Position numbers and translations under genes: made by a program. Shown piece after piece: positions 12,402 through 42,050 of a stretch of DNA of 64,000 nt; position 1 is the first letter of the stretch; every line of letters starts with the position of its first letter. The stretch is from Planctomycetota bacterium (lineage in GTDB: Bacteria > Planctomycetota > B15-G4): the NCBI GenBank assembly GCA_038212275.1, contig JBBQUR010000006.1, positions 96,001-160,000 of the forward strand. Reading direction: 5' to 3'. The notes beneath the pieces are model-generated. The model did not search any database, had not been told where the DNA came from, and was given only the letters and a program-made list of their open reading frames with translations.

Positions 12402-12402
12402 A

Positions 12403-13148: not shown

Positions 13149-13252
13149 GCGCGCCGCCGATCGCCGCCGATCGCCGGCGCCGCCCAGGCATCGGATCGCA
13201 CCCGAAAGCCCGGGACCCTGGCGGCGTCCCGAAGCACACCCGGAGACCTGCC

Positions 13253-15340: not shown

Positions 15341-15359
15341 GTCCGGGCGCGGAGCGGTC

Positions 15360-26544: not shown

Positions 26545-26556
26545 GATGCGCGTCGG

Positions 26557-27285
26557 TCATGGCGGCAGGGCGATCCCGAAGTCGCGCTCGAGAACCGGCA
26601 CGAGTTCTTCCAGCGAGTGGACCTCGTAGCGCGGCGCGGTGCGGCCCTGCACGCCCTCGAAGCGATTGTCGCGGTGGATGCGCACCGGCACGAGCCCCGC
26701 CGCATTGCACGGATCCACGTCGTGCAGCGGGTGGTCGCCGATGTACATGACCTCCTGCGGCAGCAGGCCGAGCGTGGCGCAGGCGCGCTGATAGAGCTTC
26801 GGGTTCGGTTTGCTGATGCCGACCTGGTCGCTGATGAAGATCGCCGCCGGGTTGAGCCACGGGACGACGTTGAGCAGCAGCAGCTTCTCGGCCTGCTTGA
26901 CCTCGAGTCCGTGCGTGATGATGCCCAGCATGATGTCGCCCTGCTCGTGCACACGGCGCAGGAAGGGCAGCACGTCGGGGAAGGGTTGCAGCTCGGCCTT
27001 CGTCGCGTGGTAGGCCATGATGCCCGCCGCGATGATCAGTGCGCGGTTCGTGCCGGCCCAGCTGGTAGGCGGCAGGCGCAGCAGCAGCTTGTCGAAGTGA
27101 CCGCCGTAGTTGCTGGTGAACTCGGCGATGACCTCGTCGAGTTCGCGGCGCACCTCGGTCACGGGCAGGCGCAGTCCCTGTCGCACCATGGCATCCACGG
27201 CCCTGCGCCGCGCGAGCGACGCGAACTGCGTCGTGCTGAACAACGTGTCGTCGACGTCGAAGAAGATCGCGCTGAGCTTCGCCAC
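26557..27285 (-). CDS. HAD superfamily IA hydrolase (TIGR02253-like)
   Basis: Motif I FFDVDDTL, motif II ITHG, motif III KP, motif IV YIGDHPLHDV. Confidence 0.88.
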   Translation of the reverse strand: MAKLSAIFFDVDDTLFSTTQFASLARRRAVDAMVRQGLRLPVTEVRRELDEVIAEFTSNYGGHFDKLLLRLPPTSWAGTNRALIIAAGIMAYHATKAELQPFPDVLPFLRRVHEQGDIMLGIITHGLEVKQAEKLLLLNVVPWLNPAAIFISDQVGISKPNPKLYQRACATLGLLPQEVMYIGDHPLHDVDPCNAAGLVPVRIHRDNRFEGVQGRTAPRYEVHSLEELVPVLERDFGIALPP

Positions 27286-27437
27286 GCAGGGATTCTGGGC
27301 CTGCTGCGTGCAGCGATCAAGGCTCAGCCGGCCTGATCATCCGACGCCTCCCCGCGCGCCCGATGGGGTGCCGGTGGGGCAGGCCGGCCCGCCCCGGCGC
27401 ACGCGCGAGTCCGGCGTCAGCGCGGGATCGCGCGAGT

Positions 27438-29969
27438 TCAGCGCGGGTTGGCGCTGCTGATCGGGCGCGTGTCCATTTCGCTGAAGTCGGAGATCGTGGC
27501 CCGGATGATGATGATCAGGTCCTCGGTCTCGTCGGTCAGGCCCTTCTCGCGGAAGAGGAAGCCAAGCACCGGGATGTCGCCCAGCCAGGGCGTCTGGGCC
27601 GTGCGGTTCTTGTAGTTCACGTGCTTGAGGCCGCCGATCACCACCGAGCCCCGGTCGGGAACCACGACGGTGGTCTGGGCATCGCTGACGTCGAGCTGCG
27701 GCAGCGAGAACTGGACCGCGCTGCTGATGCCGCCGAGGTTGGTCGAGATCTGGCGGATCGGGCGCCGGAGGTCGGCCACGGTGGCCTGCACGTCCAGCGT
27801 CACGTACTTGCGGTCGAAGGAGATCGTGGGCCGCACGTCGAGCACGATGCCTTCCTGCACGACGCCGATGAACGGATCGGCGATGAAGGCGCCGTTGGCC
27901 ACGTCGACGTCGTAGCCCTGCACGAACGAGACCTCGTTCACGACGGTCACGAAGGCACGCTGCGTGTTGTAGACCGAGACGACGGGCGAGCTGATCTCGG
28001 TGGCATTGCGGCTCTTCTGCACCGCGTTGATGACGATGTTGAACTCGTCGTCGCCGAGGACCGCGATCTGGAAGGCGCCGCCGCCGACGGTCGAGAGCAG
28101 GCCGCCGAGCGGATCGTTGAAGAAGTTCTCCGACACGCCCGCGTACTTGGAGTTGCCCTTGTCGAAGAAGAAACCGGCGTTCGGGTTGCCCGTGCCGTTT
28201 CCGTTGTTGTCGAGGCCCTGAGAGTTCGCCGGATCGACGGCGGTCAGGTCGACCTCGGTGCCGAGGTTGCCGCCGGGGCCGAGGCCGCGGAGGTCGGTGC
28301 CGATTTCCTCGATGAAGGCGTCGGTGATCTCGAAGAAGCGGGCCTCGAGCGTGACCATCGTGGTGGAGAAGGCGCGCAGGTCGTTCAGGAAGTCCGCGAC
28401 CTGCTGCTGCACTTCGGGCGTGTGGATCACGAGCAGGTTGTTGCTGTCCACGAAGTCGATGCTGTAGCCGAGGCCGGCGTCCCACGATTCGCGGTCGATG
28501 TTCTCGCGCACGAGGTTGAGCACCTCGTCGGGCTCGATGAGGCGCACCTTCTCGAGCTCCGAGCTGAAGATCGTGTTCTCGTTGCTGTCGCCCGCCTCGC
28601 CGGGGAGCGGGATGTCACGGATGTCGGGGCCCTTGAAGTCCGTGATGGGGAAGGTCAGGTCCTGGATGTCGTGGATATGCGGGACGGGAAGGCCGGCCGC
28701 TTTGGTCTTCAGGGTGATGTACACGCGGCCGTTGCGGATCATCCATGCCAGGTCCTTGCCGACCTGATCCACGAGGATGTTCAGCAGCGACTCCACCGGG
28801 ATGTCGCGCAGGTCGTTGATCGTGACGTACTCGGCGGCGCTGTCGAGCGCTGCCGTGACCTCCGGGTCCACCGAAACCGGGATGTCCGTCGTGAAGAAGA
28901 TGTTGTTGGCGACCTGGGCCAGAGTCAGCTCCTGGAAGTCGGCGTTCATGCGCGTGGACTTCAGCTTGGCGATGAGCGCCACCGCCTCGGGATCCGGAGC
29001 CTTGCCCAGCACGCCGCCGCCGGTGCGAAGGCGCGTGAGCTCGGCCCAGCGCTCGCCGTCGGGCGCGGTGAGGATGTCGTTGGTCGGGATGCGCACCGCG
29101 TCCATCGACTCGCGCCAGCGCGTGAATTCCTCGCGTCGCTGCTTCAGGAACTCGCGATTCGCGTTCTCACGGCGACCCTCACGGGCCGCCTCGACGAGCT
29201 GCAGCGCCTGGGCGTTGTCCGGCTGCTCCTTCAGGGCCTCCTCGGCCAGTTCCGCGGAGGCGGCGAAGTCGTTGCGCAGGAACTTCGCGGCGGAGGCATC
29301 GAGGAGCGCGTCCACCTTCGCCTGGTTCTGCTGAGTCAGTTGCGACTCCTCCGCCTGCAGCGCGAGGTAGGCGGCCTTCTCCTTGTTCAGGCGCTCGGTC
29401 GTGGACGATCCGCTGGCGGCGTTCTCGGCCTTGTCGAGCAGGCTGCGCGCGTTGTTGGAGATCTCGCCCCAGTCCACGCCCGAAGACCACTGGACCTGAT
29501 TGACGACGTTGCGCGCGAGGGCGCTCGCCTTCATCGAGTCGCCGGCCTCGAGGAGCGCCTTGGCGGTGGCGAGGTCCTGCTGCGCGGCAGCCTTCATCTG
29601 CTGGCGCTGCGCCTCGTAGCGCTGCGCGGCGGAGACCGCGAGCGCGCGCGCCTCGGCCTCGGGCTTGCCCTGCAGCAGCTGGATCTGCGCGAGGTAGTCG
29701 CCGACGACGCGGTTGGTCACGTCGAGGTCGCGCGCGAGGAGCAACTCGGACTCGGCGTGCGCGAGATCGAGGCGTTCCTCGAAGGCCCGCGCATTCGCGA
29801 GGTGCCGCTCGACGAGCAGATAGTTCTTCTGCGCGATGAGATCGAGTCGGGCGCGCTCGGCCGCGACCTTGTCGGACATGGAGTCCTGAGCCGGAGCGTG
29901 CACGGCGAGCATGAGCAGCGCCAGAAGCGCGAGCAGTGCGACCGGGGAGTGGACAGCGAGGCGCTTCAT
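27438..29969 (-). CDS. Secretin-family outer-membrane protein 2 (GspD/PilQ-like) with long helical N-terminus
   Basis: Signal peptide MKRLAVHS...VHAPA; N3-like LLVIHTPEVQQQVADFLNDLR; MVTLEARFFE; GIVLDVRPTIS; PDRGSVVIGGL; PWLGDIPVLGFLFR; LIIIIRATI. Confidence 0.85.
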   Translation of the reverse strand: MKRLAVHSPVALLALLALLMLAVHAPAQDSMSDKVAAERARLDLIAQKNYLLVERHLANARAFEERLDLAHAESELLLARDLDVTNRVVGDYLAQIQLLQGKPEAEARALAVSAAQRYEAQRQQMKAAAQQDLATAKALLEAGDSMKASALARNVVNQVQWSSGVDWGEISNNARSLLDKAENAASGSSTTERLNKEKAAYLALQAEESQLTQQNQAKVDALLDASAAKFLRNDFAASAELAEEALKEQPDNAQALQLVEAAREGRRENANREFLKQRREEFTRWRESMDAVRIPTNDILTAPDGERWAELTRLRTGGGVLGKAPDPEAVALIAKLKSTRMNADFQELTLAQVANNIFFTTDIPVSVDPEVTAALDSAAEYVTINDLRDIPVESLLNILVDQVGKDLAWMIRNGRVYITLKTKAAGLPVPHIHDIQDLTFPITDFKGPDIRDIPLPGEAGDSNENTIFSSELEKVRLIEPDEVLNLVRENIDRESWDAGLGYSIDFVDSNNLLVIHTPEVQQQVADFLNDLRAFSTTMVTLEARFFEITDAFIEEIGTDLRGLGPGGNLGTEVDLTAVDPANSQGLDNNGNGTGNPNAGFFFDKGNSKYAGVSENFFNDPLGGLLSTVGGGAFQIAVLGDDEFNIVINAVQKSRNATEISSPVVSVYNTQRAFVTVVNEVSFVQGYDVDVANGAFIADPFIGVVQEGIVLDVRPTISFDRKYVTLDVQATVADLRRPIRQISTNLGGISSAVQFSLPQLDVSDAQTTVVVPDRGSVVIGGLKHVNYKNRTAQTPWLGDIPVLGFLFREKGLTDETEDLIIIIRATISDFSEMDTRPISSANPR

Positions 29970-30086
29970 CAGCAGGAATCTCCAGGGCGGCCCGAGGCCG
30001 GGAGGGTCAGCTTGCCTCTCGGCCCGCCACGCGGGGCCGTGCTTCGGTGGCACGGCCATGCGTTGGGGGGCGGATGCTAGCATCGG

Positions 30087-30527
30087 TCACGCGTCGAACG
30101 CCACGCCGGCAAAGGTGATGTCCAGCATCCCGGCCTTGATGCACTCGTCCACCACCTTGACCACGTGGGCGTAGGTGATGCCGCGATAGGGGTAGAGCGT
30201 GGCCTTCATGTCGGGGCTCACGCGCTTCAGTTCGGACAGCTTGGCCCGCAGGGTGGTCAGGTTGGGGATCTTGGACGCGTTCAGGGTGATGAAGAACCCG
30301 TCCGGCAGGCTCTTGTCAGCGAAGAGCCCGATCTCGGCCTTGAGCAGGTTGGCGTCGGTCTGGGTGCTGTTGACACCCAGGTCCTTGGGGAGCTGCGTCT
30401 CCAGCTTGCCCTCGAGCGCTTTGAACTTGATCGTGGTCAGGAAGAAGATGATGAGCTGGAACACGACGTCGATCATCGGCGTCATGTCCGCCTCGGTCGC
30501 GTCCAGGTTGTACTGCTTGCTTCCCAT
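30087..30527 (-). CDS. ExbD/TolR family protein
   Basis: DMTPMIDVVFQLIIFF (conserved TM Asp); C-terminal YAHVVKVVDEC...ITF. Confidence 0.88.
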   Translation of the reverse strand: MGSKQYNLDATEADMTPMIDVVFQLIIFFLTTIKFKALEGKLETQLPKDLGVNSTQTDANLLKAEIGLFADKSLPDGFFITLNASKIPNLTTLRAKLSELKRVSPDMKATLYPYRGITYAHVVKVVDECIKAGMLDITFAGVAFDA

Positions 30528-30530
30528 CGC

Positions 30531-30992
30531 TCAGGACTCCTCGGGCTGGCCGGCCGCCAGATGGATCTTGTAGATGCGGATGCCCATCTCGCCGCAGATG
30601 CGCAGCAGCTTCTGCACGTGCTTGAACTCCGTGGTCTGATCCGCACGGATCAGCAACGCGCGCTCGGACAGTCCCTGAGCGTCCTTCTTGCCCTTGAGCA
30701 CGGCGTCGGCGAGCAGCGCGCGGATGACCTGCTGCGTGGCCGGGTCGTCGAGCGTGCTGTACTCCTTGCGCTTGATCTGGATGGAGCCGTTTTTCATCAG
30801 GTTGACGGTGAGGCGTCCCGTCTCCTGTTCGTCCTTCACCGCCTGCGTGGCGAGCGGGAGCTTGATGTCGGCCAGCTCCTGCTGGGTCATGTCCGTCACG
30901 ACCATGAAGAAGATGATGAGCTGGAACACGACGTCGATCATCGGCGTCATGTCCATCTTCGTGGCTTCCATCTCGTACTTCTTGTTGCCCAT
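30531..30992 (-). CDS. ExbD/TolR family protein
   Basis: DMTPMIDVVFQLIIFFMV, IKLP, LLIRADQ. Confidence 0.9.
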   Translation of the reverse strand: MGNKKYEMEATKMDMTPMIDVVFQLIIFFMVVTDMTQQELADIKLPLATQAVKDEQETGRLTVNLMKNGSIQIKRKEYSTLDDPATQQVIRALLADAVLKGKKDAQGLSERALLIRADQTTEFKHVQKLLRICGEMGIRIYKIHLAAGQPEES

Positions 30993-31087
30993 GGCTCAGC
31001 TCCTCATGCCGACGGGGCTTCGGGGCAGCAGCGCGCGGACGCGGGGCGGCAGATCCGTCCCGGTCTCGCGGCGGCTGCAGGCGGACG

Positions 31088-31837
31088 TCACGACGCGTTC
31101 CGCGGACGGAAGCGCTCGAACATGTCTTCGATGACCGAACCGACCTCGATGGTGAAGGACACCATGCGGTTGCGCAGGATCACGAAGGCCGACGTCACGG
31201 GGATGGCGACCATCAGACCGAGCAGCGTGGTGATCAGCGCCGACGCGATGTTGTGCGCGAGCTGGTCCGGCGTGGCCTGACCCTTGGTGGCGGCGATCTG
31301 CTCGAAGGCCGCGATCATGCCCTGCACCGTACCGAGCAGTCCGAGCATCGGGGCGATGGCGGCGATCAGCGAGAGCCACGCCAGCTTGGCGTTCACCTTC
31401 GTGACCTCCTCGTCCATCATCTCCTCGAGGTGCTTCTCCATCGTCTCGAAGGACACGTTGATCTTCGGCAGGCCGGCGGCCACGACGTTGGTGAAGAAGC
31501 AGGGCTCCGACTCGCAGACCTCCATGGCCTCCTGATACTCCTCGGCCTCGAGCAGCGCCTCGATCTCGTCCACGATCTCCGGAGGCGCCATCTTCACCTT
31601 CCGGATCTCGATGAAGAGCTTGATGATCAGCGTGAGGCCGATCACGGAGAGCAACTCGATCACCCAGCCGATGTAGCCGGCGTCGTACTGGAACTTGTCG
31701 AAGCCCGACATCTCCTGCGCCGCCGGAGCGGGAGCGGCGCCCTCGACCGGAGCGTCTTGCGCGGCGACGATCGCGGGGAGCACGAGGAGGGCCAGCAAGG
31801 CCAGGGCGGGCAGCAGGTACTTGATCTTGGCCTTCAT
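31088..31837 (-). CDS. MotA/TolQ/ExbB proton channel family protein
   Basis: Signal-like N-terminus; APMLGLLGTVQGMIAAF; IASALITTLLGLMVAIP. Confidence 0.9.
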   Translation of the reverse strand: MKAKIKYLLPALALLALLVLPAIVAAQDAPVEGAAPAPAAQEMSGFDKFQYDAGYIGWVIELLSVIGLTLIIKLFIEIRKVKMAPPEIVDEIEALLEAEEYQEAMEVCESEPCFFTNVVAAGLPKINVSFETMEKHLEEMMDEEVTKVNAKLAWLSLIAAIAPMLGLLGTVQGMIAAFEQIAATKGQATPDQLAHNIASALITTLLGLMVAIPVTSAFVILRNRMVSFTIEVGSVIEDMFERFRPRNAS

Positions 31838-31872
31838 GAATGAGGTTCTCATTGGGTAGGTACAGGCGGGGA

Positions 31873-32979
31873 TCATGGGAGTGACTCCTGGGCCAGCTTG
31901 GCCCAGCGCGTGTCGGGGTAGCGTGCGACGACTTCCTGGAAGCACGCCATGGCGCGCTGGTGCCCGTTGGGCTCCTTGCCTGCCGCGGCGAGCGCTTCCG
32001 CGCAGCGGCCGAGGTAGTACACGGCGCGCGCGCGTTCGTCCGGGATGGCGGTGGAGGTCAGGGCCACGCGGGTGAAGGCCAGCTGGGCCTCCTTGAGCTT
32101 CGCCGGGTCGTGGAAGTCGCATTCGGCCAGGCCGTTCGCCGCCGCCGCCTGGACGGCCGGGTCGCCCTTGCCGTCGCGGGCCAGCGTCTCGTAGTAGCTG
32201 CGCGCGCCAGACAGGTCCTTGGCTTCGAGCAGACAGGTGCCGGTGCCGACGCGCGCCGCGAGGCCGAGCTTGGCCATCACGGGCACAAGATCGGGGCGGT
32301 CCGCGAGGCGGTCCTTGGACGCGGCCGCGGCTTCCGCGTCGGCGAAGGCCTGCGTGGCGCCCTTGGTGTTGCGGGCCGCGAGGAGGGCGTCACCTTCGGC
32401 GAGGTGCACGCGCACCTTCCAGTCGGGCGTGACTTTGCCGTCCTTCACGAGCGCCAGCACGGCGTCGAGTGCGGCGCGCGCCGTCGCGGCGTCGCCTGCC
32501 GCCGTGGCGTAGTCGGCCTTGTCGAGCAGCGCCTGCGGGAGCAACCGATGATCCGGATACTTCTTGAGGAACTCGTCGATGGCGCTCAGCGCCGCGGTCA
32601 GCCCGGTCTTGCCGCGCGCCGCGGCGGCCTGCGCCTGGCGCAGCAGCGCGTGCGCCGCAACCCACGGCGGCGCAGTGTCCTTGCTCGCGGCGCCGAACAG
32701 CGTCTCGGCATTCACGAGGTCGGAACCTGCCAGCGCTTTCAGCCCCTTCTCGTAGGACTCGCTGCCGGGGCCGTACTCGATCTCGGTGATGTCCGCCGTC
32801 TTGCGCGTGGATTCGCCGCCGCCCTTGGTCGAGAACTTCACCGAGTCGAGCGTCTCGGACAGGATGACCACGTTGGCCTGCGGGATCTCCTTGCGCTCCT
32901 TGTTCAGCAGCGTCAGCCGCCCCTGGGCGGCGACGCCCGGCGCGAGCAGCAACGGCGCGAGCAGCAGGGCAAGGCGCAT
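31873..32979 (-). CDS. Exported TPR protein (CpoB/BamD-like helical repeats)
   Basis: Signal peptide MRLALLLAPLLLAPGVAAQ; FLKKYPDHRLLPQAL; ARAVYYLGRC...EVVARYPDTRWA. Confidence 0.75.
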   Translation of the reverse strand: MRLALLLAPLLLAPGVAAQGRLTLLNKERKEIPQANVVILSETLDSVKFSTKGGGESTRKTADITEIEYGPGSESYEKGLKALAGSDLVNAETLFGAASKDTAPPWVAAHALLRQAQAAAARGKTGLTAALSAIDEFLKKYPDHRLLPQALLDKADYATAAGDAATARAALDAVLALVKDGKVTPDWKVRVHLAEGDALLAARNTKGATQAFADAEAAAASKDRLADRPDLVPVMAKLGLAARVGTGTCLLEAKDLSGARSYYETLARDGKGDPAVQAAAANGLAECDFHDPAKLKEAQLAFTRVALTSTAIPDERARAVYYLGRCAEALAAAGKEPNGHQRAMACFQEVVARYPDTRWAKLAQESLP

Positions 32980-33034
32980 GAGCGGACGTGGTGCCACACG
33001 GGTCTCGCGAGTTCGGGGCGCGAAGGAACGGCGC

Positions 33035-33064
33035 ATTCTAGCGGTGCCTCTCCGGAACGATCAA
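33035..33064 (-). promoter_or_regulatory. Putative sigma70 promoter for the TPR-exbB-exbD-exbD-secretin 2 sub-operon
   Basis: Minus strand TTGATC (33064-33059) - 18 bp - TAGAAT (33040-33035), in the intergenic gap. Confidence 0.45.
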
Positions 33065-33102
33065 TGCGGGCAGGGCGCCGCCGGGGCCGAGAAAGCTCGG
33101 GC

Positions 33103-35901
33103 TCAGGGAATCTTCTTCTCGAGGTACTTGAACAGGGGCCTGAAGGAGGGCGAGTACTGCTTCTCCGGCGGGAGGTCCTTGAGCGACTCCTCGTCGTAGC
33201 TCGGATACAGCACCGCCAGATTGTTCAGCGCCTTGCGCGCATCGATCAGCGACTGCGGCAGGGCCGCGCCTTCGCGGTACTGGGTGTAGAGCGTCCCGAG
33301 TTTGGACTCCCACCAGATGCGCTCGCTGGGGGCGTTCACCTTGGCGTTCGCGAACAGCGTGCTCCACAGCTTGTAGGCATCGCCGTAGTCGCCGCTGCCC
33401 GGAATCTCGACGATGGAGCCGTCGGGTCGGAGCTCCAGCCAGCCGCCGTAACCCCGCGCGGCGCCCACGAGCACGCGGACATCGGAGGGGCGCCGGCTCT
33501 CGAGATCCTTCCAGTAGGGGCGCGCCCGGCCGAACTCGTTCGACTGGTTGTAGGACAGCGCCAGGCCGATCCGGGCCTCGTCGAGCGAGGCCGGCGGGAT
33601 GTTGCTGCCCGGCTTGCCGAAGACCTCCAGCGACTTCAGGTAGCTGCGCTGCGCGAGGTCCGGCTTGCCCACGCGCGAGTACCACTCGCCGATGGAGAGC
33701 AGGTTGGTGAACGACGGGAAGCCGCTCAGTTCGGCCGAGTTCCAGAGCGCGTCCGCGGCGCGTCCGAGCAGCGCGTCCGCGCCGGCGTTGTCGCCCTTGG
33801 CGCGGGCGGCTTCACTGGCCTTGACCAGCGCACTGGAGAGCTGGAACCAGCCCACGCGCAGGTAGCTGCTGTCGGCGCGAAAGGCTGCCAGGTCCTCGAC
33901 GGCCTTGGTGGCCGCGTCGACATCGCCCTTCATCGCACAGGCGAGGATGCGCTGATACTTCACGCTCTCCACGAGTCCGGCCTGGCTTGACAGCTTCTCC
34001 TCGAAGCCCTCGAGCACCTTCAGTGCGTCGACGGGCTTTTCCATGCCGGCCGAGAGCAGCAGGTCGGCCTTGTAGTAAAGGGCCGAACCCAGCGCCGCGT
34101 CGCGGCGGTTGCGCGCGTCGGCATTCGGCGGGGCGAAGGCCGGGTCGCTGGCGCGCTTGATGAGCAGGTCATACGCCGCCAGCGCCTCCTTCGGCTTGCC
34201 CGCGCCGGCAAGCGCGCGGCCCTGGTAGACGAGCGAGAGTTCGTAGCTGGGAGCGTCCTCCGTGACGGCCTTCAGGTCCTCCACGGCGGCGAGGAAGGCC
34301 TCGGGCTCCGGCGGCGACGTGCCGTTGGCAATGTCGAAGCTTTCCTTGGCCTGCGAGAAGGCGAGGTCCGCGACGATGCCCATCTTGATGAGCCGGTCGC
34401 GTGCCTGGTCGCGCAGGGTCTTGTCGAAGGCGTCCTTGGTCTCGAGATAGCGGCGGTCGTAGTTCTTCGACATGCCGCCCGCGGCGCTCTCCTGCACCTC
34501 GAGAGGCGCCTTCTGAGCGACGGCCGCGTCGAGTGCCATGCCGAAGGCGAGGGCCGCCTCGAGGTTGAGCTTGTCGGATGCGTAGGCCCGTGCCGCGCCG
34601 AGCCACGCCGGCACGAGGAACTCCTTGAGCTCGGCGTCCTGGCGCAGCGAGCCCGCGACACGCGCGAACTGGAACGCCGCCTCGGCGTAATCCTTGCGGT
34701 CGTTGAGTCCCTTGGCGGCCGCCATGAGCACGGCGGGGGAGGCGTCCCCGATGCCGGACTCGCTGACGAGGGTCGCGAGCAGGTCGCGCGCCCTTTCGCC
34801 TTGCGGCAGCGACGCACCCTGATCCGCGACCAGCTTGACGATGTCCAGCGCCTTGCCGCCGCGGCCCAGCGCCTGCAGCTGGTCCGCCCAGGCGAGCAGC
34901 ACGTCGAAGCCCGCGCCGCCAAAGGCCAGATTCGCCTTCGCGTGCGCCTGCAGCATCGTCTCGATGACGGCGTTGGCGCCGTCGGCGTCTCCGCCGTCCG
35001 CCTTGATGGTCGCGATCTCGCCCCACGTGCGGTCGAACAGCTCCGCGATGAACGGGGCGGCCGCCGGGTTCTGCAGCGCGTTGTCCCAGAACCACTGCGC
35101 CTTCTCGAGCACGTCGTTCTGCAGGAAGAGGGCCTTCTCCAGGTCGCCGAGCTTGCGCTTCACGACACCCTGGTAGTGCACCGCGAAGTGCTGGGTGATG
35201 ACCTCCTCGTCAAGCTCCCACTGGAAGTCGTTGAGCAGGTCGAAGGCCTGCTCGAGCCGGTACTCGCGGTCCTTGGCGACGTCGGCCCAGTCCACGGCGT
35301 TCAGGCCGCGCTCGTACAGCGTCAGCGAGGCGAGCTGGCGGAAGTTGTCGGCCGCGTCGAGGTTGCCGCGATCTCCGGCCGCCTTCTCCTGGTCCTTGTA
35401 CTCGGCCTGCAGCCGGACGCGCACTTCGTCGGATTGCTTGTAGTCCGCTTCGGCCAGCGCGCGGAGCGTCTCGACCTGATCTTTCGGCGCGTCCTTGAGC
35501 TGTCGGGCGCGCAGGCGGCCGCGCGCCTGGAGCACGTCGGCCAGTTCCTTGAGCGCCGCCGGGCGGCTCGGGTGATAGACGTAGGCGGTGCCCGGCTTGG
35601 CCCAGTCGGAGAGCAGCTCGACCGACGCGGACTGGTACTTCATCTGGCGCTCGGCATCGTTCGTGGCCTCGCTGGCCTTGCGATCGATTCGCGCCTCGGT
35701 GAAGTCGAGCGTGCCCTTCTCTTCCGGCGTGAGCTTGCCGATGCGCAGGTCGGTCAGCAGGTCGAAGGCAAGGTCGTAGTAGCGGTACCTGGCGAGGTTG
35801 TCCGCGAACTGGATGTCATCCAGCAGGAGCGAATTGCCGGTCTGCGCCCACGTGAGCGGCGCGAGACAGGTCAGGGTGAGGAGGCCGGCGCGGAACAGCA
35901 T
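33103..35901 (-). CDS. Large exported TPR/alpha-solenoid protein (932 aa)
   Basis: Signal peptide MLFRAGLLTLTCLAPLTWAQ; Ala/Leu-rich helical repeats throughout; host-like codon usage; starts 5 bp after the secretin 1 stop. Confidence 0.75.
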   Translation of the reverse strand: MLFRAGLLTLTCLAPLTWAQTGNSLLLDDIQFADNLARYRYYDLAFDLLTDLRIGKLTPEEKGTLDFTEARIDRKASEATNDAERQMKYQSASVELLSDWAKPGTAYVYHPSRPAALKELADVLQARGRLRARQLKDAPKDQVETLRALAEADYKQSDEVRVRLQAEYKDQEKAAGDRGNLDAADNFRQLASLTLYERGLNAVDWADVAKDREYRLEQAFDLLNDFQWELDEEVITQHFAVHYQGVVKRKLGDLEKALFLQNDVLEKAQWFWDNALQNPAAAPFIAELFDRTWGEIATIKADGGDADGANAVIETMLQAHAKANLAFGGAGFDVLLAWADQLQALGRGGKALDIVKLVADQGASLPQGERARDLLATLVSESGIGDASPAVLMAAAKGLNDRKDYAEAAFQFARVAGSLRQDAELKEFLVPAWLGAARAYASDKLNLEAALAFGMALDAAVAQKAPLEVQESAAGGMSKNYDRRYLETKDAFDKTLRDQARDRLIKMGIVADLAFSQAKESFDIANGTSPPEPEAFLAAVEDLKAVTEDAPSYELSLVYQGRALAGAGKPKEALAAYDLLIKRASDPAFAPPNADARNRRDAALGSALYYKADLLLSAGMEKPVDALKVLEGFEEKLSSQAGLVESVKYQRILACAMKGDVDAATKAVEDLAAFRADSSYLRVGWFQLSSALVKASEAARAKGDNAGADALLGRAADALWNSAELSGFPSFTNLLSIGEWYSRVGKPDLAQRSYLKSLEVFGKPGSNIPPASLDEARIGLALSYNQSNEFGRARPYWKDLESRRPSDVRVLVGAARGYGGWLELRPDGSIVEIPGSGDYGDAYKLWSTLFANAKVNAPSERIWWESKLGTLYTQYREGAALPQSLIDARKALNNLAVLYPSYDEESLKDLPPEKQYSPSFRPLFKYLEKKIP

Positions 35902-35906
35902 GGAAG

Positions 35907-38831
35907 TCAGCGCGTGAAACCGAAGTTCGGCTCATGCTCCTGCGACACGAGGATCGTGGCCTTGAGCAGGATGATGAGCTTGCGCTTGCTGGTGTACTCG
36001 CCCTGGCGCGTGAAGAGAGCGCCGAGAACCGGGATGTCGCTGATGAACGGGACACCCGAGTTGTTGTTCTGGTCCACGGAGGTCTTGAGTCCGCCGAGCA
36101 TGAGCGTGGCGCCGTCGGGAATCGTGGCCACCGTGCGCACGCGCTGCACGCGCAGTTCCGGCAGTTCGATGATGACGTCGTTGCTGCCCGGCGTGCCGAG
36201 GCTCACGGCAACGTCCGGCAGGACGTCGCCGGTTTCATCCGGGATGAGCGCCGTCACGGTGGGGCGCAGCTCGAGGGTCACGAAGCGCCGGTCGGCCGAG
36301 GCCACGGCGCGCACGTCGAGCATCACGCCCTGCATGACGTTGTCGAGTTCGGGCTGCGCGATGACGGCCGACTGCGCGATTTCCGGCTCGAAGTCCCGCA
36401 CGTAGGAATAGATCGAGAGCGCCTTCACGTTGCCGCGCTGGCCGCTGCGCAGCGTGAGCGTCGGCGCGTTGACCACGTTGCTGGTCTGGTACTTCTCGAC
36501 CGCGTGCAGCACCGCGTTGACGTTCGTGTCGTTCAGGAAGAGCGCGTCGACCGAGAGTCCGCCGGCATTGTTCAGGGTGCCCGACTCGCCGAGGCTGAAG
36601 TCGTACAGGTTCTCGATGCGGCCCTTCACGTCGCCGTTCGAGCTGCCGTTGTAGAAGCCGGGGTCATTGCCCGTGCCGATGCCGGTCGGGTTGCTCGGGG
36701 TGCCGAAGCCGCCCGCGCCGGACTGGCCGAAGTCTTCCAGCGGGAATCCGCCGGTGAGGTCGCCGGGGAGGCCGCGGAGATCGACGCCGATGTCCTCGAG
36801 GAAGCTGTCCTCGACCTCGATGAAGCGGGTCTCGATGTTGATGAGCGTGCCGCTGTTCGCGCGCAGGTCGAGCAGCAGCGCCCGGATCTGGGCCTGCACT
36901 TCGGGCGTCTGGCGCACGACGAGCGTGCCCTTCAGCAGCTGGATGGTGCGATTGGGATCGTCCGTCCACGACTCCTTCGCGATGTTGTCCTGGATCAGGG
37001 TGAGCAGCTTGTCCGCGCCGATGAAGGCCAGCGGCTCGTCGTCCTCGACGCCCGTGGTGTAGCTCTCCTTGTCCACGCCGGACGGCCGCAGGTTGAAGTC
37101 CTCGGCCTTGTAGTCCTTGGCGACCAGGGTCAGGTCCTTGATGTCATACATCTGCAGGACGTAGTCGTTGCGCGCCTCGTCCTTCGTGATGATGCGCACG
37201 ACGCCGTCGCGCACCGTGTAGCTGAGCGGCGTCTCCGAGAGATCCTCGAGCAGGATCTTGAGGATGCGCTCGATCGACTGCGGCGCCCTGTCCTCGAGCG
37301 TGTAGGCCTGCGTGCCGCCCAGGTCCCTCACGGCTGGCGACAGCAGGAAGTTGACGCCGGACACGGCCTTGAGGTGGGTCAGCACGCCATCCAGCGGCTC
37401 ATCCTTGAAGCTCACCGGGATCCGCTTCTGCAACTGGTCCGAGACGGCGGTGTCCAGCTCGGACGTCGTGACCGGGTTGCCGGCGAACACCTTGGCGCCA
37501 CGGTCGCTGATCTTTTCCCAGTCCTTGGCCTCGGGGTACAGGACGATGTCGTTCTGCGGCATCGCCTCGTGCGCGATCTCGTCGAAGGTGTCCTGCCACT
37601 CGTTCTTGTACTCGCGGCGGATTTCACCCGTCTTCGCATTGTGTCGCGCGAGGCCAACCACTCGCTGCAGCTCGGTGGCGCCTGCATTCTGCGGATCGAT
37701 CTCGAGCACTGCGGCCAGGGCGGCCTCGGCGGCCACGAAGTCGTCCTTCAGGAAGGCCGTGTTCGCGGTATCCATGAGCGCCGCCACCTGGCGCTCGAGT
37801 TGCGTGGCTTCCGCGAGGTCGAGTTCTTCCTGGTGCTTCTGTGCGAGCGTGATGAGCCTGGTGCCGCGCTTGGATTCGAGATCCTCGGCCTGCCGGCGCG
37901 CGGCACTGACCATGGCCGCGATGCCGGCTTCGCTGAGCGTGCCGTCCTGCGCGGAGGGCGAGGCTTTCAACAGGGCGAGCGCGTCCTCGAACTTGCGCTT
38001 GCCGGTCTCGGGGTCGCCCGCGGCCATCGCGACGCGACCCTGCTCGATCAGGCTGCGCACTTCGAGCTCGGCCTGCTGGAGTCGCGCACCGGCCTTGTCG
38101 CGGGCACCGAGAGCCACGACGGCCAACTCCGAGTTCTTGTCGCCGAGCAGCGCGCCGGTCCGCTCGAACAGGTCGCGCGCGGCGGGGTCGGTCGGGTCGA
38201 GCTCGTAGGCGTTCGCGAAGTTGTCGTGCGCCGCCTGCAGGTCGCCTGCGTTCATCGCGGTGACGCCGGCCTGCACGAAGGCCGCGACGAGTGCCGCCAC
38301 GCGGTCATCGACGAGCGCAGCGTGCTGCCTGCTCTGCTCGAGCACGAGCGAGAGGTCTCCCGTCGAAATCGGTGTGGGCGCCGTGGCGGGCGCCGTCGCG
38401 GGTGCCGGCTTGTCCTGAACGGGTGCGGGCGCGGGGGGCGGCGGCGGCAGCATCTCCGTGGGCGCCGTCACGGGCACGGCCACCGGCTTCGACGTCGTGG
38501 CGGGCAGCGCAACCGGCGCCGCGGGAACGGGCTGGGCCGCGCCCGGAGCCACGGGCTGGGCCACGGGCTGGGTCGCCGGCGGGGGCGTCTTGCCGTCGCG
38601 GATGGCGGCCGCCCGCGCCTTGTACTCCTCGAGCCACTGCGGGTCTCCGGGCGCCAGTTCGGTGGTCGGAACCAGCGCTTCCTCCGGGACGGCGACGATG
38701 GGCGGCTCGATCGGGGAGCTGCTCTGCTGAGTCGCCGGCGATCCGCAGCCGGCAAGGCCGACCACGAGGATCAGGAGACGCGAGCGGTGGGAGTGAAGCA
38801 TGTCACAGGGCGTCCGCGGGGAATGCGTCAT
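35907..38831 (-). CDS. Secretin-family outer-membrane protein 1, predicted lipoprotein with Pro/Ala-rich linker and TPR-like N-terminus; alternative start at 38801
   Basis: Lipobox LAGC; LVVRQTPEVQAQIRALLLDLR; INIETRFIE; GVMLDVR; IPDGATLMLGGL; GVPFISDIPVLGALF; LIILLKATI. Confidence 0.85.
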   Translation of the reverse strand: MTHSPRTPCDMLHSHRSRLLILVVGLAGCGSPATQQSSSPIEPPIVAVPEEALVPTTELAPGDPQWLEEYKARAAAIRDGKTPPPATQPVAQPVAPGAAQPVPAAPVALPATTSKPVAVPVTAPTEMLPPPPPAPAPVQDKPAPATAPATAPTPISTGDLSLVLEQSRQHAALVDDRVAALVAAFVQAGVTAMNAGDLQAAHDNFANAYELDPTDPAARDLFERTGALLGDKNSELAVVALGARDKAGARLQQAELEVRSLIEQGRVAMAAGDPETGKRKFEDALALLKASPSAQDGTLSEAGIAAMVSAARRQAEDLESKRGTRLITLAQKHQEELDLAEATQLERQVAALMDTANTAFLKDDFVAAEAALAAVLEIDPQNAGATELQRVVGLARHNAKTGEIRREYKNEWQDTFDEIAHEAMPQNDIVLYPEAKDWEKISDRGAKVFAGNPVTTSELDTAVSDQLQKRIPVSFKDEPLDGVLTHLKAVSGVNFLLSPAVRDLGGTQAYTLEDRAPQSIERILKILLEDLSETPLSYTVRDGVVRIITKDEARNDYVLQMYDIKDLTLVAKDYKAEDFNLRPSGVDKESYTTGVEDDEPLAFIGADKLLTLIQDNIAKESWTDDPNRTIQLLKGTLVVRQTPEVQAQIRALLLDLRANSGTLINIETRFIEVEDSFLEDIGVDLRGLPGDLTGGFPLEDFGQSGAGGFGTPSNPTGIGTGNDPGFYNGSSNGDVKGRIENLYDFSLGESGTLNNAGGLSVDALFLNDTNVNAVLHAVEKYQTSNVVNAPTLTLRSGQRGNVKALSIYSYVRDFEPEIAQSAVIAQPELDNVMQGVMLDVRAVASADRRFVTLELRPTVTALIPDETGDVLPDVAVSLGTPGSNDVIIELPELRVQRVRTVATIPDGATLMLGGLKTSVDQNNNSGVPFISDIPVLGALFTRQGEYTSKRKLIILLKATILVSQEHEPNFGFTR

Positions 38832-39865
38832 GGCAGGTCCACATTCAGTGTGCGCACTGCACCGTCCCGGGTGGCCAACGTCGCAACGAGGCGCGTCACC
38901 GGTTTCAGGACTTGCGTTTGCGTGGTTCGGGGTTCGTGAGTTTCGGGGTCGAGAACGAGACTTCCGTCGGTCGTGAGCAGCAGGCGCTGTTGCGTGGTCA
39001 GCGCGTCCTCCTGCCTGGTCTGCAGTGCCTTGAGGGTCAGTCCCGTGGTGGTGGACCCCGTTCGGACTTCTTCGCCGATGCGTGCCGTCACCTGACGGTC
39101 GCCCACGGCGTTGGGCAGGTTCACCTGGATCAGGAACACGGCCTGGTCGCCGGTCGCCCGAACCAGACTCAAGCTGAAGTGCTCCGGGGTCGCTACGGTA
39201 ACCAGATCGCTGCGTTCGGCGTCCACGAGCACGTCTTCCGACCCGTCGTGACGCAGGAGCACGGCCCAGACCTGGTAGCCCATGCGACTTGCCGCAAGCG
39301 GCAGCTGGACATCCCGCCAGAGGACTTCGCTGAGAGGCAGCGTGGCCATCAGGGTGAGTTCAGCGCCGTCGATGGCGCGGTAGATGCGCTGCCCGACTCG
39401 CAGGTCGCTGCCTTCGCGCTCCAGTGCCGCCGCGCGCACGCGATTCATCGGCCCCGGATTCCACGTCAGCGTCACCACGCCGAGGCCGTAGCCTGCCTCG
39501 AGAGCGTCGGGCGACACGAGCCCCGTGCTGCGGGACGGGGTCTCGAACGGACTGCGCACGCGGCGCGCCTCGAAGTCCTGCAGTTCCGACACATCGAACA
39601 CTGCGCGCGCGAGGGTGCCGACGACTTGCGGCTGCTGGGCAAGCGCCCACTCGGCCGCATCGAAGGCTCCGCGCTGTTCCGACATGTTCGAGGGCCGCAT
39701 CGCCTCCTCTAGCCGAGTCTCCAAGACTGATTCGGCAGCCTTAGTTCGTCGTAAGTCGTTGCTGTACAACAGATTATGTACAAAGAGCGCAAGGGCGGAA
39801 ACGATAAGAGATGCCGCCAGCCCTGTCAATACGAGAATCCTCGCCGAGCGGGCGCTGCTGCTCAT
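38828..39865 (-). CDS. Single-pass membrane protein of unknown function, in the position normally held by pilP
   Basis: ATGA overlaps at both ends; N-terminal TM ILVLTGLAASLIVSALALFV; beta-rich FN3/Ig-like segment VVTLTWNP...RIYR. Confidence 0.6.
   Translation of the reverse strand: MSSSARSARILVLTGLAASLIVSALALFVHNLLYSNDLRRTKAAESVLETRLEEAMRPSNMSEQRGAFDAAEWALAQQPQVVGTLARAVFDVSELQDFEARRVRSPFETPSRSTGLVSPDALEAGYGLGVVTLTWNPGPMNRVRAAALEREGSDLRVGQRIYRAIDGAELTLMATLPLSEVLWRDVQLPLAASRMGYQVWAVLLRHDGSEDVLVDAERSDLVTVATPEHFSLSLVRATGDQAVFLIQVNLPNAVGDRQVTARIGEEVRTGSTTTGLTLKALQTRQEDALTTQQRLLLTTDGSLVLDPETHEPRTTQTQVLKPVTRLVATLATRDGAVRTLNVDLP
39750..39829 (-). promoter_or_regulatory. Intragenic sigma70-like promoter with a downstream palindromic operator/IHF-like site
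   Basis: Minus strand TTGACA (39829-39824) - 17 bp - TATCGT (39806-39801); imperfect palindrome CGTAAGTCGTTG-ctgta-CAACAGATTATG (39750-39778); TGTACA-N8-TGTACA (39763-39782). Confidence 0.55.
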
Positions 39866-40581
39866 GGCCCACCCTCGGCGTCGCGCGCGAAGTAAATCGC
39901 GACGGTCACGGCGAGTCGCACCGGCGGCGTGTCGAACGCCTGCAACTGCAAGCCCCATCGTTCCGGTTCGATGCGACGCAGCGAGCAGCTGAGCACCCCG
40001 GCGAACGGCAGCCCGCCCGTCGGCTGCGGAGTGAGGCGTTCGAGGACGCCGACCGCCTCCGTGAGGCTGCAGCTGAGGACGATGCTGGCCTGCATCTGCT
40101 CGAGCTGTTCGATGTGAGGTGTGGGCACGAGCTTGCCCCCGTCGGAGAGCTCCAGCACCTCCAGCCCCTTCGCGTCGCCCAGCGCCTCCAGCAGAAGGGA
40201 GAGCGCCTCTTCCGCCTCGGCCGAGCTGGCCCGCTGGGCGCGTACGCTGCTTCCGAGCCGGGACTCCAGGGCAAGGGCTCGATCCTTGCGCGCCTCCAGC
40301 AACTCGTCGAAGGCGGGCAGGGCCGCGGGCTCCTGCACTCCCGTGAGCCAATTCAGCCGGCGTCGGGCGAGTTCCGCGAGTCGGTCGCGGTCGCCCAGCA
40401 GGGCGCCGAGCTCCGCAGTGAGGTTGGGTGGCAAGCGCGCTTCCATGGCCTTGACCGAGGCCTCGCGTGCCAGCAGGTCGGCGTGTGCCAGGCGCTCCGC
40501 CGCCAGCGCCGGGCGTCCGACGACGAAGAACTCGGCCACCGCGGCCAGCAACAGGACGGCAAGCACCACCAGCGTCTTCAC
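39862..40581 (-). CDS. PilO/GspM-like inner-membrane alignment protein (putative)
   Basis: N-terminal TM helix, coiled coil, then an alpha/beta (ferredoxin-like) pattern; directly downstream of pilM-pilN with GTGA overlap. The call relies mainly on position. Confidence 0.55.
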   Translation of the reverse strand: MKTLVVLAVLLLAAVAEFFVVGRPALAAERLAHADLLAREASVKAMEARLPPNLTAELGALLGDRDRLAELARRRLNWLTGVQEPAALPAFDELLEARKDRALALESRLGSSVRAQRASSAEAEEALSLLLEALGDAKGLEVLELSDGGKLVPTPHIEQLEQMQASIVLSCSLTEAVGVLERLTPQPTGGLPFAGVLSCSLRRIEPERWGLQLQAFDTPPVRLAVTVAIYFARDAEGGP

Positions 40582-42050
40582 GAGACCGCCAGCTCCACGA
40601 CCCAGCGGGAAAGCGCCGAGCCCGGAGCCGGTTCAGGACCGCGCACGCGCACATCGGCCCAGTCGCCGCCAAAGGCCGCATTCAGGCGTTCGCCGAGCGC
40701 CTCATCCTGGCTCGGGTCCGCGTGCAGCGTCAGCGTCATGACGCCGGGGTGTCCCGGCTCGGCTGCGGACAGCCAGAGCTGCTCCAGGTGCAGGTTCGCG
40801 ACATCCAGTCCCGAGATCACGTCGGCGAGTCGAGCCAGGGCGCGACGCGGTTGAAGCGCTTCGGTGCGGCGCTGAGCCAGGCTGAGCAGGGCCTCCGCGC
40901 TCGCGGCGGCTTCCGCACGCTCCGCGGCCGTCTCGTCGCGGCGACGCTGCACGTCCGCGAGGCTGCCCGCCAGGCTGATGGGCAGCGCGGTCTGCAAGCG
41001 CGTCGTGTTCCAGCGGGCCAGCTCGCCGATGCCGACCAATGTCGCGCTGGCGACCAGCACGCTGGCGGCGATGGTCGGCACGCGACGCAGCGCCTCGCGC
41101 TCGGGGCTGGCCACTTCGATCGGGGCCGAGATGCGCCCGAGTTTCAGGCCGCAGAGCGCGAGCCCGAAGGCCTTGCCCATCGCCAGCGCCTGCTCGGGAG
41201 AATGGCCCTCGTGCGAGACGCGCCGTGCTGCACGGATGCGCTGCAGCGCGTCGAGGCGCGCGACACGCAGGCCCGTGGCCGAGCGCAGCGCGGTGGTGAA
41301 CGCCGCGTCACAGGCGCCCTCCTCGGTGAGCACGAGTTCGACCGGCGCAAAGGGCTGCTCCGGCGGGAGAAGGGTCGCGACCGCCGCGGCGATTTCCGCC
41401 TTGAACCGGGCGGCCAGCTCGGCGGGCTCGCCGTGCTGCAGTCCCAGCGGCAGGTGTCGCATCCAGACGCCGCCCGGCCGCGCGAGGACCAGCTCGCTGG
41501 CCACCTCGCCGACGGCGAGCAGCACCCGGTCCTGGTTCTGCGGCCGCTCGTGCTCCACGAACGAAGCCAGCGCGAAGCCGGGCGTCTCGAGCGCGTCGCA
41601 CGCGACGTGCCGCGAGACGAGCTCGGCGCGGAAGGCATCGACCGTGGCGCGCGGCAACGCCCACGTGAGCGCCTGACTTTCCAGCGGCCCGCGGCGCACG
41701 TGGTGGCGGATGACGAGGTCATCCTCGGGGCGGCCCGTTTCGGCCAGCACCTCGTAGCGCACGAGCTCGTCGAGTCGCGTACCGTCCAGCGCGGGGATGA
41801 GGTAGGTGCGGCTGAAGATCCCGCGCGACGGAGCGGAGATGACCAGCATGGTGCCACCGGAGACGGGATGCCTGGCCAGCAGCGCGGGCAGCGCATCGAG
41901 CGCGGCCTGCTGCGGGTCGCGTTCGCCCGCACAGCCCACGCGCCAGCTCGCCGTCCAGGTCACGCGCCGACCCGACCGGACCAGTCGCACGGCCTTCAGC
42001 GTGCCGTCCGAGAGGTCGATGCCGACGGCGCTCTGGCCGAAGAGGCTCAT
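40578..42050 (-). CDS. pilM: PilM (actin-like) - PilN-like fusion protein
   Basis: AVGIDLSDGTLKAVRL, LDELVRYE, RHLPLG, ELVLTEEGA, AFGLALCGL (PilM), followed by a TM helix, coiled coil and a small periplasmic domain (PilN-like). Confidence 0.72.
   Translation of the reverse strand: MSLFGQSAVGIDLSDGTLKAVRLVRSGRRVTWTASWRVGCAGERDPQQAALDALPALLARHPVSGGTMLVISAPSRGIFSRTYLIPALDGTRLDELVRYEVLAETGRPEDDLVIRHHVRRGPLESQALTWALPRATVDAFRAELVSRHVACDALETPGFALASFVEHERPQNQDRVLLAVGEVASELVLARPGGVWMRHLPLGLQHGEPAELAARFKAEIAAAVATLLPPEQPFAPVELVLTEEGACDAAFTTALRSATGLRVARLDALQRIRAARRVSHEGHSPEQALAMGKAFGLALCGLKLGRISAPIEVASPEREALRRVPTIAASVLVASATLVGIGELARWNTTRLQTALPISLAGSLADVQRRRDETAAERAEAAASAEALLSLAQRRTEALQPRRALARLADVISGLDVANLHLEQLWLSAAEPGHPGVMTLTLHADPSQDEALGERLNAAFGGDWADVRVRGPEPAPGSALSRWVVELAVS

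Follow-up and report, generated by a model that had tools for sequence, protein, structure and literature searches.

To the best of our knowledge, all secretins characterised to date work together with ATP-driven inner-membrane machines or with phage assembly proteins. Motors of the ExbB/ExbD type are known to work by way of a transducer, such as TonB, TolA or a similar protein. Here we describe a gene cluster of a Planctomycetota bacterium in which members of both families stand side by side, namely ten genes at positions 27438-42050 of the 64-kb stretch of contig C6 that we analysed ("the window"; GenBank assembly GCA_038212275.1, G000:C6:96001-160000; G+C content about 70%), which encode two secretins, two tetratricopeptide repeat (TPR) proteins and an ExbB-ExbD-ExbD motor. 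The closest known systems are the Amuc_1098-1101 and mucin-utilisation locus (MUL) genes of Akkermansia, and the TPR-tolQ-tolR-tolR cassette of the Planctomycetes-Verrucomicrobia-Chlamydiae (PVC) group. Amuc_1098 (PilQ) is described as a highly abundant outer-membrane secretin of 907 aa, with TPRs at residues 71-239 and a secretin domain at residues 650-876 (Ottman et al. 2016, PMC4960237). The MUL genes are reported to code for pili and for protein complexes of the periplasm and to be required for mucin products accumulating in internal compartments (PMC12418764), and are attributed to Davey et al. 2023 by that paper and by PMC12570417. The PVC cassette, which runs from a TPR gene through a tolQ-like and two heterologous tolR-like genes to a gene for a von Willebrand factor type A (vWA) transducer, has been proposed as a new system driven by the proton motive force (Williams-Jones et al. 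2025, Mol Biol Evol msaf138, PMC12204202). The main text of that article never uses the word 'secretin'. In the published literature we found no description of a secretin-TPR-ExbB-ExbD-ExbD-secretin cluster such as the one reported here. Where one conserved operon encodes a motor in between two secretins, along with TPR scaffolds and no transducer or ATPase, a different mode of coupling is indicated, which would connect the Akkermansia mucin-uptake genes (genetically defined, mechanism unexplained) with the PVC TolQR-like cassettes and with periplasmic polymer uptake in PVC bacteria. A new way of powering a large pore is thereby suggested, though not proven.

Frame plots of third-position G+C (GC3), open reading frame (ORF) lists and Pfam matches agree with the original prediction for this DNA, which had claimed ten co-oriented, abutting genes with two secretins, two TPR proteins, one ExbB and two ExbD. 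All ten lie on the minus strand in the order PilMN (a PilM-PilN fusion), 'PilO-like', SP, Sec1, T932, TPR2, ExbB, ExbD1, ExbD2 and Sec2 (Table 1), between genes for a uracil-DNA glycosylase (UDG) upstream and a haloacid dehalogenase (HAD)-type hydrolase downstream. Four junctions (UDG/PilMN, PilMN/PilO-like, PilO-like/SP and SP/Sec1) are 4-nt overlaps and the remaining gaps in the cluster measure about 3 to 117 nt, which suggests a tight operon. Our evidence is comparative throughout, and establishes the content and order of the cluster, its conservation, the paralogy of its secretins and its separateness from the TonB system of the same genome. We consider it most likely that the cluster is one operon for an envelope-spanning machine. 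Somewhat short of even confidence, we favour the reading that a TonB-less proton motor is coupled through TPR scaffolds to the paired secretins, probably for polymer uptake; one machine is the best explanation for why a dedicated motor, independent of TonB, is consistently encoded between two secretins that are likewise dedicated.

T932 is present in 37 of 41 relatives; across the phylum, a single-sequence query detected it in 35 of the 301 genomes sampled. Conservation of the linkage in relatives had been named beforehand as a test on which the prediction could fall, and we found the linkage kept in 27 loci, well beyond close relatives, where the seven-gene core Sec1-T932-TPR2-ExbB-ExbD1-ExbD2-Sec2 occurs in the same order with both flanks. 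These loci comprise 18 of 20 from relatives, 7 of 15 at phylum-level T932 matches, and 2 among the 80 top-ranking loci of 596 by similarity of ExbB. At least nine family codes (f1, f2, f4, f5, f22, f46, f51, f67 and f91) are represented, together with further metagenome-assembled genomes (MAGs), and T932 identity among these loci falls as low as about 23%. The 20 loci of relatives were drawn from five families of the order; besides the 18 with the full core, one ends at a contig edge and one (L020) is without ExbB/ExbD. At the 15 weaker phylum-level T932 loci, seven have the full core, three have T932 and ExbB/ExbD without a secretin in the stretch (TPR2 being detected only in L034 among these), and five are weak or unrelated. 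A scan on an ExbB alignment, with one genome per species, yielded six secretin-linked loci among the best 80 of 596 (L037-L041 and L043), all of them from Planctomycetota and two of them (L037 and L038) with the complete core; within the same 80 loci no named cultured strain had the secretin-linked form.

Families other than that of the window carry an extra gene between ExbD2 and Sec2 (L010-L019 and L021-L026; for example L012:9257-11263). We considered its product as a vWA transducer and rejected this, as the gene encodes a sulfatase-family (PF00884) plus TPR lipoprotein. The protein reads T-L-P-S-H at the presumed motif site, where we take sulfatases to carry C-x-P-x-R, and this suggests a putative phosphotransferase or hydrolase with a Thr nucleophile rather than a sulfatase. 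The window's family is without this gene, and no clear orthologue was found among the many sulfatase genes of the genome.

Phylogenetic trees set both the secretins and the motor apart. In a quick IQ-TREE run that included the five other secretins of the genome, Sec1 and Sec2 (58 rows) were separated from these five with an approximate likelihood ratio (SH-aLRT) support of 99. Sec1 formed a group of 30 rows (support 97) and Sec2 one of 26 rows (support 93), with parallel internal order, and two long-branch rows from L028 were placed in neither. As the two groups are distinct and branch in parallel, the secretin gene duplicated before these families arose, and Sec1 and Sec2 would be old paralogues specific to this cluster. 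For ExbB, a FastTree of 111 rows collected all 33 secretin-linked and 5 T932-linked sequences into one 38-row group (support 98), which neighbours other Planctomycetota and then Kiritimatiellota rows inside a PVC-rich group of 77 rows (support 93) that also includes Verrucomicrobiota. The TonB-linked ExbB of the same genome fell into another group of 34 rows, on a long branch; to judge from the tree, the cluster motor represents a separate lineage.

Only two MotA/ExbB-family loci were found in the genome, this cluster and a canonical TonB locus on C20 (L120; G000:C20:36000-50000) with the order TonB-dependent transporter (TBDT), ExbB, ExbD, TonB, TPR protein. Since this separate locus lies on another contig, the cluster ExbB/ExbD are not needed for TonB. 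The C20 transporter has 1001 aa and a CarboxypepD_reg N-terminus, its ExbB has 483 aa and a DUF3450-like N-terminal extension, and the TPR protein has 498 aa.

Pfam searches of the whole genome, which is 91% complete, were used to look for the usual partners of a secretin or of a motor, and the absences that follow hold at Pfam sensitivity. None of the 8 T2SSE matches (PF00437; GspE/PilB ATPase), the 10 T2SSF match segments (PF00482; GspF/PilC platform; five loci on C1, C4, C10 and, twice, C12), the 33 N_methyl matches (PF07963; prepilins, scattered over other contigs), the 2 TonB_C matches (C9 and C20) or the single TonB-dependent receptor barrel (C20) is on C6. Besides Sec1 and Sec2, searches of the genome found a further five strong secretins and a short fragment; of the five, four (on C4, C10 and two on C12) adjoin ATPase and platform genes. 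An orphan trio of two PilB-like proteins (558 and 565 aa) and a PilC (396 aa) is encoded on C1 (L116, G000:C1:24000-43900, at 7394-12024), among housekeeping genes and with no PilM, secretin or pilin alongside; an orphan PilM (PilM_2) is found on C10 (L117:9727-11433), and an orphan secretin of 483 aa, adjoining an OmpH-like gene, on C9 (L118:8514-9965). With the trio, a PilM and pilins elsewhere in the genome, 'no ATPase' is true of the locus and not of the cell, and the lack of an ATPase, platform protein, prepilin, TonB and TBDT that the original prediction had noted for the 64 kb holds for contig C6. Further C9 sequence (L119, G000:C9:168000-187900) contains a 256-aa ORF at 6792-7562 with only the C-terminal part of a secretin domain, and the second TonB_C protein (412 aa, 15974-17212), which adjoins a MacB/FtsX-type permease. 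On C19 at least nine N_methyl prepilin ORFs are crowded into about 9 kb (G000:C19:79744-88329), on a contig without an ATPase or secretin match.

The main rival explanation arises from these findings. It holds that two neighbouring systems are present: PilMN, the PilO-like protein, SP and the secretins would serve an ATP-driven type IV pilus or type II-like system whose ATPase, platform and pilins are distant (for example the C1 trio), and the TPR-ExbB-ExbD-ExbD genes would be an independent PVC-type force-transducing cassette that shares only neighbourhood or regulation. The C1 trio without a PilM, secretin or pilin beside it and the prepilin matches scattered over other contigs are what such an arrangement would lead one to expect, and PilMN is a true PilM-PilN. 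Kiritimatiellota, Verrucomicrobiota and other Planctomycetota also have members of this ExbB lineage with no secretins alongside. In the Omnitrophota locus L112, a TPR-ExbB-ExbD set lies beside a complete PilM-PilO-PilQ-PilB-PilC-pilin operon; we had considered L112 as an independent link between ExbBD, PilM and a secretin, and dropped it because the type IV pilus operon next to the motor genes is complete with ATPase, PilC and pilin. However, the motor genes lie between, and not beside, the secretin genes in 27 loci of distant families, Sec1 and Sec2 form an old branch separate from the ATPase-adjoining secretins, the C1 trio need not depend on this cluster, as the orphan PilM of C10 and the orphan 483-aa secretin of C9 could complete it, and the core persists in genomes without a PilMN orthologue. 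Taken together we regard two separate systems as a serious possibility and nevertheless a rather doubtful one.

Several observations do weigh against a single machine of coupled motor and secretins, of which the main caveat is that the orphan PilB-PilB-PilC trio, the orphan PilM and the scattered prepilins could serve the PilMN/Sec1 half. Three loci (L030, L034 and L046) contain T932 and ExbB/ExbD with no secretin within the fetched stretch. Conversely, L020, from a 73%-complete MAG (G017), has both secretins and the TPR genes and no ExbB/ExbD; in this locus (8653-15089) T932 and TPR2 form one ORF of 1275 aa and the sulfatase-like gene is split over several frames, and L020 is either a decaying copy or an assembly error. 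PilMN, the PilO-like protein and SP are absent from the G126 and G145 loci, whose genomes gave PilM matches only at paralogue level (109 and 89 bits, versus 439-467 bits for the in-cluster orthologues of G088 and G090). As the core persists without a PilMN orthologue, the PilMN platform is an add-on and the core is secretin-TPR-motor-secretin, and the predicted union of a PilMNO-like secretin module and an ExbBD module in one locus applies to this conserved core, the PilMNO-like part being optional. Pfam and NCBIfam matches of the cluster proteins reveal no TonB, TolA or vWA-type force transducer encoded in the locus. The homology of the cluster proteins to the Akkermansia families is weak or undetected. 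Finally, the UDG and HAD flanks are kept just as well as the core, so conserved order by itself is no proof of shared function, a point that equally favours two separate systems.

To the UDG and HAD neighbours we owe a further alternative, namely a machine for DNA uptake or handling in which DNA would enter through the secretins, be pulled in by the motor and be processed by UDG and the nucleotidase-like HAD on the two flanks. The UDG stop codon overlaps the PilMN start (ATGA), and UDG stays directly upstream of the cluster across the phylum-level loci, those without PilMN included. Many loci have a TIGR02253-like HAD hydrolase gene 3' of Sec2, and the HAD protein of the window also matches the model of the noncanonical pyrimidine nucleotidase YjjG (63.5 bits, cut-off 159.9). 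PilQ and HofQ secretins are known DNA entry pores, and an ORF with a ComEC/Rec2 'Competence' domain is encoded on the minus strand of the window at 9202-10515 (PF03772, E=2.1e-33). This ORF is however about 17 kb distant from the cluster, UDG and HAD may be housekeeping neighbours, and known competence pores use pilus retraction ATPases; we consider a DNA machine very improbable.

The domain content of the cluster proteins, with Pfam and NCBIfam matches judged at E<=0.01, supports the assignment of its secretins and motor. Among the families by which the prediction was to be checked, Secretin (PF00263) was matched by Sec1 (83.8 bits, residues 777-961) and Sec2 (92.1 bits; cut-off 27.5), MotA_ExbB (PF01618) by ExbB (94.9 bits) and ExbD (PF02472) by ExbD1 (71.2 bits) and ExbD2 (65.9 bits), while Secretin_N (PF03958), like STN, was matched by neither secretin at E<=0.01, and PilMN had no Pfam match. 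NCBIfam GspD/PilQ alignments extend back to about residue 545 in Sec2 and 634 in Sec1, the N-terminus of Sec1 has a TPR_2 match at residues 184-215, and the two secretins share about 29% identity across loci. In both ExbD1 and ExbD2 the transmembrane (TM) aspartate D20 is invariant across 24 sequences, and ExbD2 has a KFK-LEGK motif after the TM helix. The top NCBIfam match of ExbB is tolQ (76.8 bits, cut-off 221) and the tolR score is 56 bits (cut-off 127.3), neither reaching equivalog level; exbB and ExbD scores of the motor proteins were likewise under cut-off. TPR2 matched TPR_6/YfiO in Pfam, and BamD (44.8 bits) and YbgF (34.8 bits) in NCBIfam, both under cut-off.

That tolQ, tolR and YbgF/CpoB are the best NCBIfam matches would fit a substitute for Tol-Pal, in which a TolQ/TolR-like motor and a CpoB-like TPR protein stabilise or remodel the outer membrane of a lineage without classical Tol, and the secretin-fold proteins are anchors instead of pores. 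Also in its favour are the TonB linkage of the only other MotA/ExbB locus, with no further TolQ candidate in the genome, and the fact that Williams-Jones et al. looked for alternative transducers in species without TolA/TonB-type proteins (PMC12204202). Yet the NCBIfam scores are far under the equivalog cut-offs, and the presence of T932 in only 35 of 301 genomes of the phylum with this query is narrow for an essential envelope function. We know of no secretin that acts as a mere anchor, and we judge a Tol-Pal substitute improbable.

T932 had no Pfam match. Its AlphaFold model (pLDDT 89.7) is an all-helical TPR superhelix of about 45 helices, and Foldseek matched it to the TPR proteins Ctr9, Ski3 and those of IFT-A and to the flagellar periplasmic scaffold 9hmf_K of C. 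jejuni, among many others; the scaffold match may serve as a precedent for large periplasmic TPR proteins around stators of the MotAB family. A complex prediction of the periplasmic domains of ExbD1 and ExbD2 with TPR2 scored 0.00 against a mark of 0.32 and weighs neither way. Because its stator is of the 1+2 arrangement and its TPR proteins are large, the cluster likewise recalls a motor for surface motility or adhesion on the lines of Myxococcus AglRQS/Glt, where one TolQ-like and two TolR-like proteins drive periplasmic TPR proteins, and gliding was suggested as a possible role of the PVC cassette by Williams-Jones et al. (PMC12204202). We nonetheless see hardly any probability in this explanation for the present cluster. 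To our knowledge, secretins are not part of the Glt machine.

Of the three proteins encoded upstream of Sec1, PilMN could be assigned. A profile of 19 PilMN sequences matched PilM of M. xanthus (3jc8) at E=2.2e-39 over positions 5-315 and PilN at E=0.01 over positions 324-426, so the predicted PilM-PilN fusion is real; its sole NCBIfam match was Amuc_1101_fam, at about 23 bits. By contrast the predicted PilO-like identity of the next protein was not upheld, with no match in Pfam, NCBIfam or PDB profiles (nothing below E=0.1 in the PDB search) and an hhalign probability of 0.1% against Pfam-verified PilO; the label is without sequence support and reflects only position and topology. For SP, whose PDB profile search also gave nothing below E=0.1, the AlphaFold model (pLDDT 82.8) predicts two beta-sandwich domains of FN3-like fold that a disordered linker joins to a long TM helix, residues 113-254 aligning with FN3 domains at a VIA-align Z of 11-12 (generic) and a Foldseek E of about 3e-4. 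The TM helix has a conserved His-Asn, where H30 is in the majority consensus of 16 sequences and outside the listed invariant or nearly invariant columns. We considered SP as a TonB-like transducer, for which its topology fits, but by eye there is no SHLS-type motif and the His is at the periplasmic end of the helix, and the proposal remains an idea.

Returning to a TonB-less motor coupled to the paired secretins, we propose that an inner-membrane motor, with five ExbB subunits surrounding one ExbD1/ExbD2 heterodimer, would turn proton flow into movement, as can be expected from the protein families and from the TM aspartate that both ExbD keep. In the periplasm, TPR2 and T932 would hold the motor in place and connect it with the long, TPR-bearing N-terminal parts of the lipoprotein Sec1 and of Sec2. 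Loci with the PilMN module may encode an inner-membrane platform for docking Sec1, made up of the PilM-N fusion, the small bitopic protein and SP, as suggested by their pilMNOPQ-like order and overlapping start and stop codons. The motor might then open or gate the secretin pores, or pull cargo through them. Physical coupling, cargo and direction are what we infer, and by analogy with the Akkermansia MUL genes the uptake of large polymers into the periplasm would be the likelier direction. A bolder form of this proposal is that the TonB-less ExbB-ExbD1-ExbD2 motor directly gates or drives the secretin pair as proton-powered polymer importers. The cluster would then provide a third means, next to TonB and Tol, of supplying the outer membrane with energy. 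It would also represent the ancestral, still fused state of a machinery that in Akkermansia is divided between the pili-like and MUL loci, and would be a candidate for the long-sought route by which Planctomycetota take up macromolecules; in this full form we hold it to be unlikely.

Table 1. The ten genes of the cluster and their two neighbours (positions are those of the window).
Feature	Position	Strand	Remarks
PilM-PilN fusion (PilMN)	40578..42050	-	490 aa; cytoplasmic actin-like PilM domain, one TM helix, PilN-like periplasmic part
Small bitopic protein in PilO position ('PilO-like')	39862..40581	-	239 aa; N-terminal hydrophobic helix; family unassigned, label by position/topology only
SP, bitopic inner-membrane protein	38828..39865	-	345 aa; PilP/GspC position, directly 5' of Sec1
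Sec1, lipoprotein TPR-secretin	35907..38831	-	974 aa; lipobox LAGC
T932, exported TPR/alpha-solenoid superhelix (predicted)	33103..35901	-	932 aa; signal peptide; signature gene of cluster
TPR2, exported BamD/CpoB-like TPR protein	31873..33036	-	387 aa; signal peptide; conserved position directly 5' of ExbB
ExbB/TolQ-family proton channel	31088..31852 or 31088..31837 (two start candidates)	-	N-terminal signal-like helix
ExbD1, TolR/ExbD family	30531..30992	-	153 aa; TM aspartate
ExbD2, heterologous second ExbD	30087..30527	-	146 aa; TM aspartate
Sec2, second secretin	27438..29969	-	843 aa from Met before type-I signal peptide; ORF extends to 30083
Family-4 uracil-DNA glycosylase (UDG), upstream neighbour	42047..42700, 5' end approximate	-	TIGR00758 194.6 bits
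HAD-type hydrolase, downstream neighbour	26557..27336	-	TIGR02253 155.6 bits, cut-off 169.75

Elsewhere in the window we noted genes of a peptide-type ATP-binding cassette (ABC) transporter (13124-18108) and an OppA-like binding protein (24943-26556), a phosphopantetheinyl transferase (57039-57815, minus strand) and a non-ribosomal peptide synthetase module with C-A-PCP domains (60321-63998, plus strand) that runs beyond the window edge.

When compared with known systems, the cluster resembles the PilMNOPQ proteins of the type IVa pilus and GspC/L/M-GspD of the type II secretion system in its PilM-PilN homology, its secretin domain, and its bitopic and beta-sandwich proteins before the secretin. 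It differs from them in that it is without an ATPase, platform or pilin, has no detected PilO homology and no Secretin_N match at E<=0.01, and possesses a second secretin and an embedded motor; PilP moreover is a lipoprotein, whereas SP is predicted to carry tandem FN3-like domains on a TM anchor. With ExbB-ExbD-TonB the cluster shares the ExbB and ExbD families and the TM aspartate. However, C6 has no TonB_C or TBDT, the separate TonB locus being on C20, and the cluster ExbB belongs to a different tree group. The likeness to Myxococcus AglRQS, of one TolQ-like and two TolR-like subunits, is one of arrangement only.

The PVC cassette is closer, as a TPR gene directly 5' of a TolQ-like gene is followed by two different TolR-like genes in both, and the cluster ExbB falls within the 77-row group that is rich in Kiritimatiellota and Verrucomicrobiota loci of that layout. 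In the loci of those phyla that we inspected, a giant TPR protein of about 1000-1100 aa and a protein of 250-300 aa precede ExbB and two ExbD, with a vWA protein next in L056; in L081 the vWA gene comes after a single detected ExbD and a 772-aa TPR protein, the latter encoded downstream of the motor. In contrast, no vWA or other transducer built of a TM helix, linker and globular domain follows ExbD2 in our cluster, where Sec2 comes directly next (in other families the sulfatase-like TPR lipoprotein comes first). In the Kiritimatiellia loci L082, L087 and L071 a protein of 567-585 aa, weakly similar to the squalene-hopene cyclase C-terminal domain, replaces the vWA protein after ExbD2, and in L082 it is followed by MacB/FtsX and ABC ATPase genes.

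Akkermansia Amuc_1098-1101 have the same order as our cluster, with a PilM-like gene, two genes for about 240-390 aa and a large secretin with N-terminal TPRs; the combination of TPRs and a C-terminal secretin domain in Amuc_1098 recurs in Sec1. In the Verrucomicrobiales locus L122 four genes score above the respective NCBIfam cut-offs and run in the order Amuc_1101, 1100, 1099, 1098, and the layout of L122 and L124 corresponds by position to PilMN, PilO-like, SP and Sec1 of the window. The cluster proteins themselves remained below these cut-offs, with Sec1 at 88.7 bits and Sec2 at 46.1 bits for Amuc_1098_fam (cut-off 750) and PilMN at 23.1 bits for Amuc_1101_fam (cut-off 650). For Amuc_1100_fam and Amuc_1099_fam there was no NCBIfam match among them, and hhalign gave 0.6% for the PilO-like protein against Amuc_1100 and 1.2% for SP against Amuc_1099, with only three sequences in each Amuc set. 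With the cut-offs missed and the profile comparisons negative, the relation is one of architecture, perhaps of distant ancestry, and not of demonstrated family membership.

New in the present analysis are the optional PilMN module, the motor-less L020, the sulfatase-like gene and its absence from the window's family, the negative Amuc_1099 and Amuc_1100 profile comparisons, the orphan ATPase trio as a caveat, and the paired Amuc_1098-type secretins of Verrucomicrobiales. Among L122-L126 (G324, G325 and G326), two genomes of this order each have two Amuc_1098-family secretins above the NCBIfam cut-off, one in an Amuc_1101-1100-1099-1098 locus and one solitary. In a third genome, G325, two Amuc_1098-family secretins with in-frame stops stand in tandem 3' of a PilM-like gene. 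Pairing of TPR-secretins may be a trait of the PVC group as a whole. The original prediction had placed the Akkermansia secretin and motor modules at separate sites, which fits three Verrucomicrobial genomes where the TPR-ExbB-ExbD-ExbD locus and the Amuc_1098-type secretin loci are on different contigs. What is apart in those Verrucomicrobia is united in the Planctomycetota cluster, where the motor genes stand between the two secretins.

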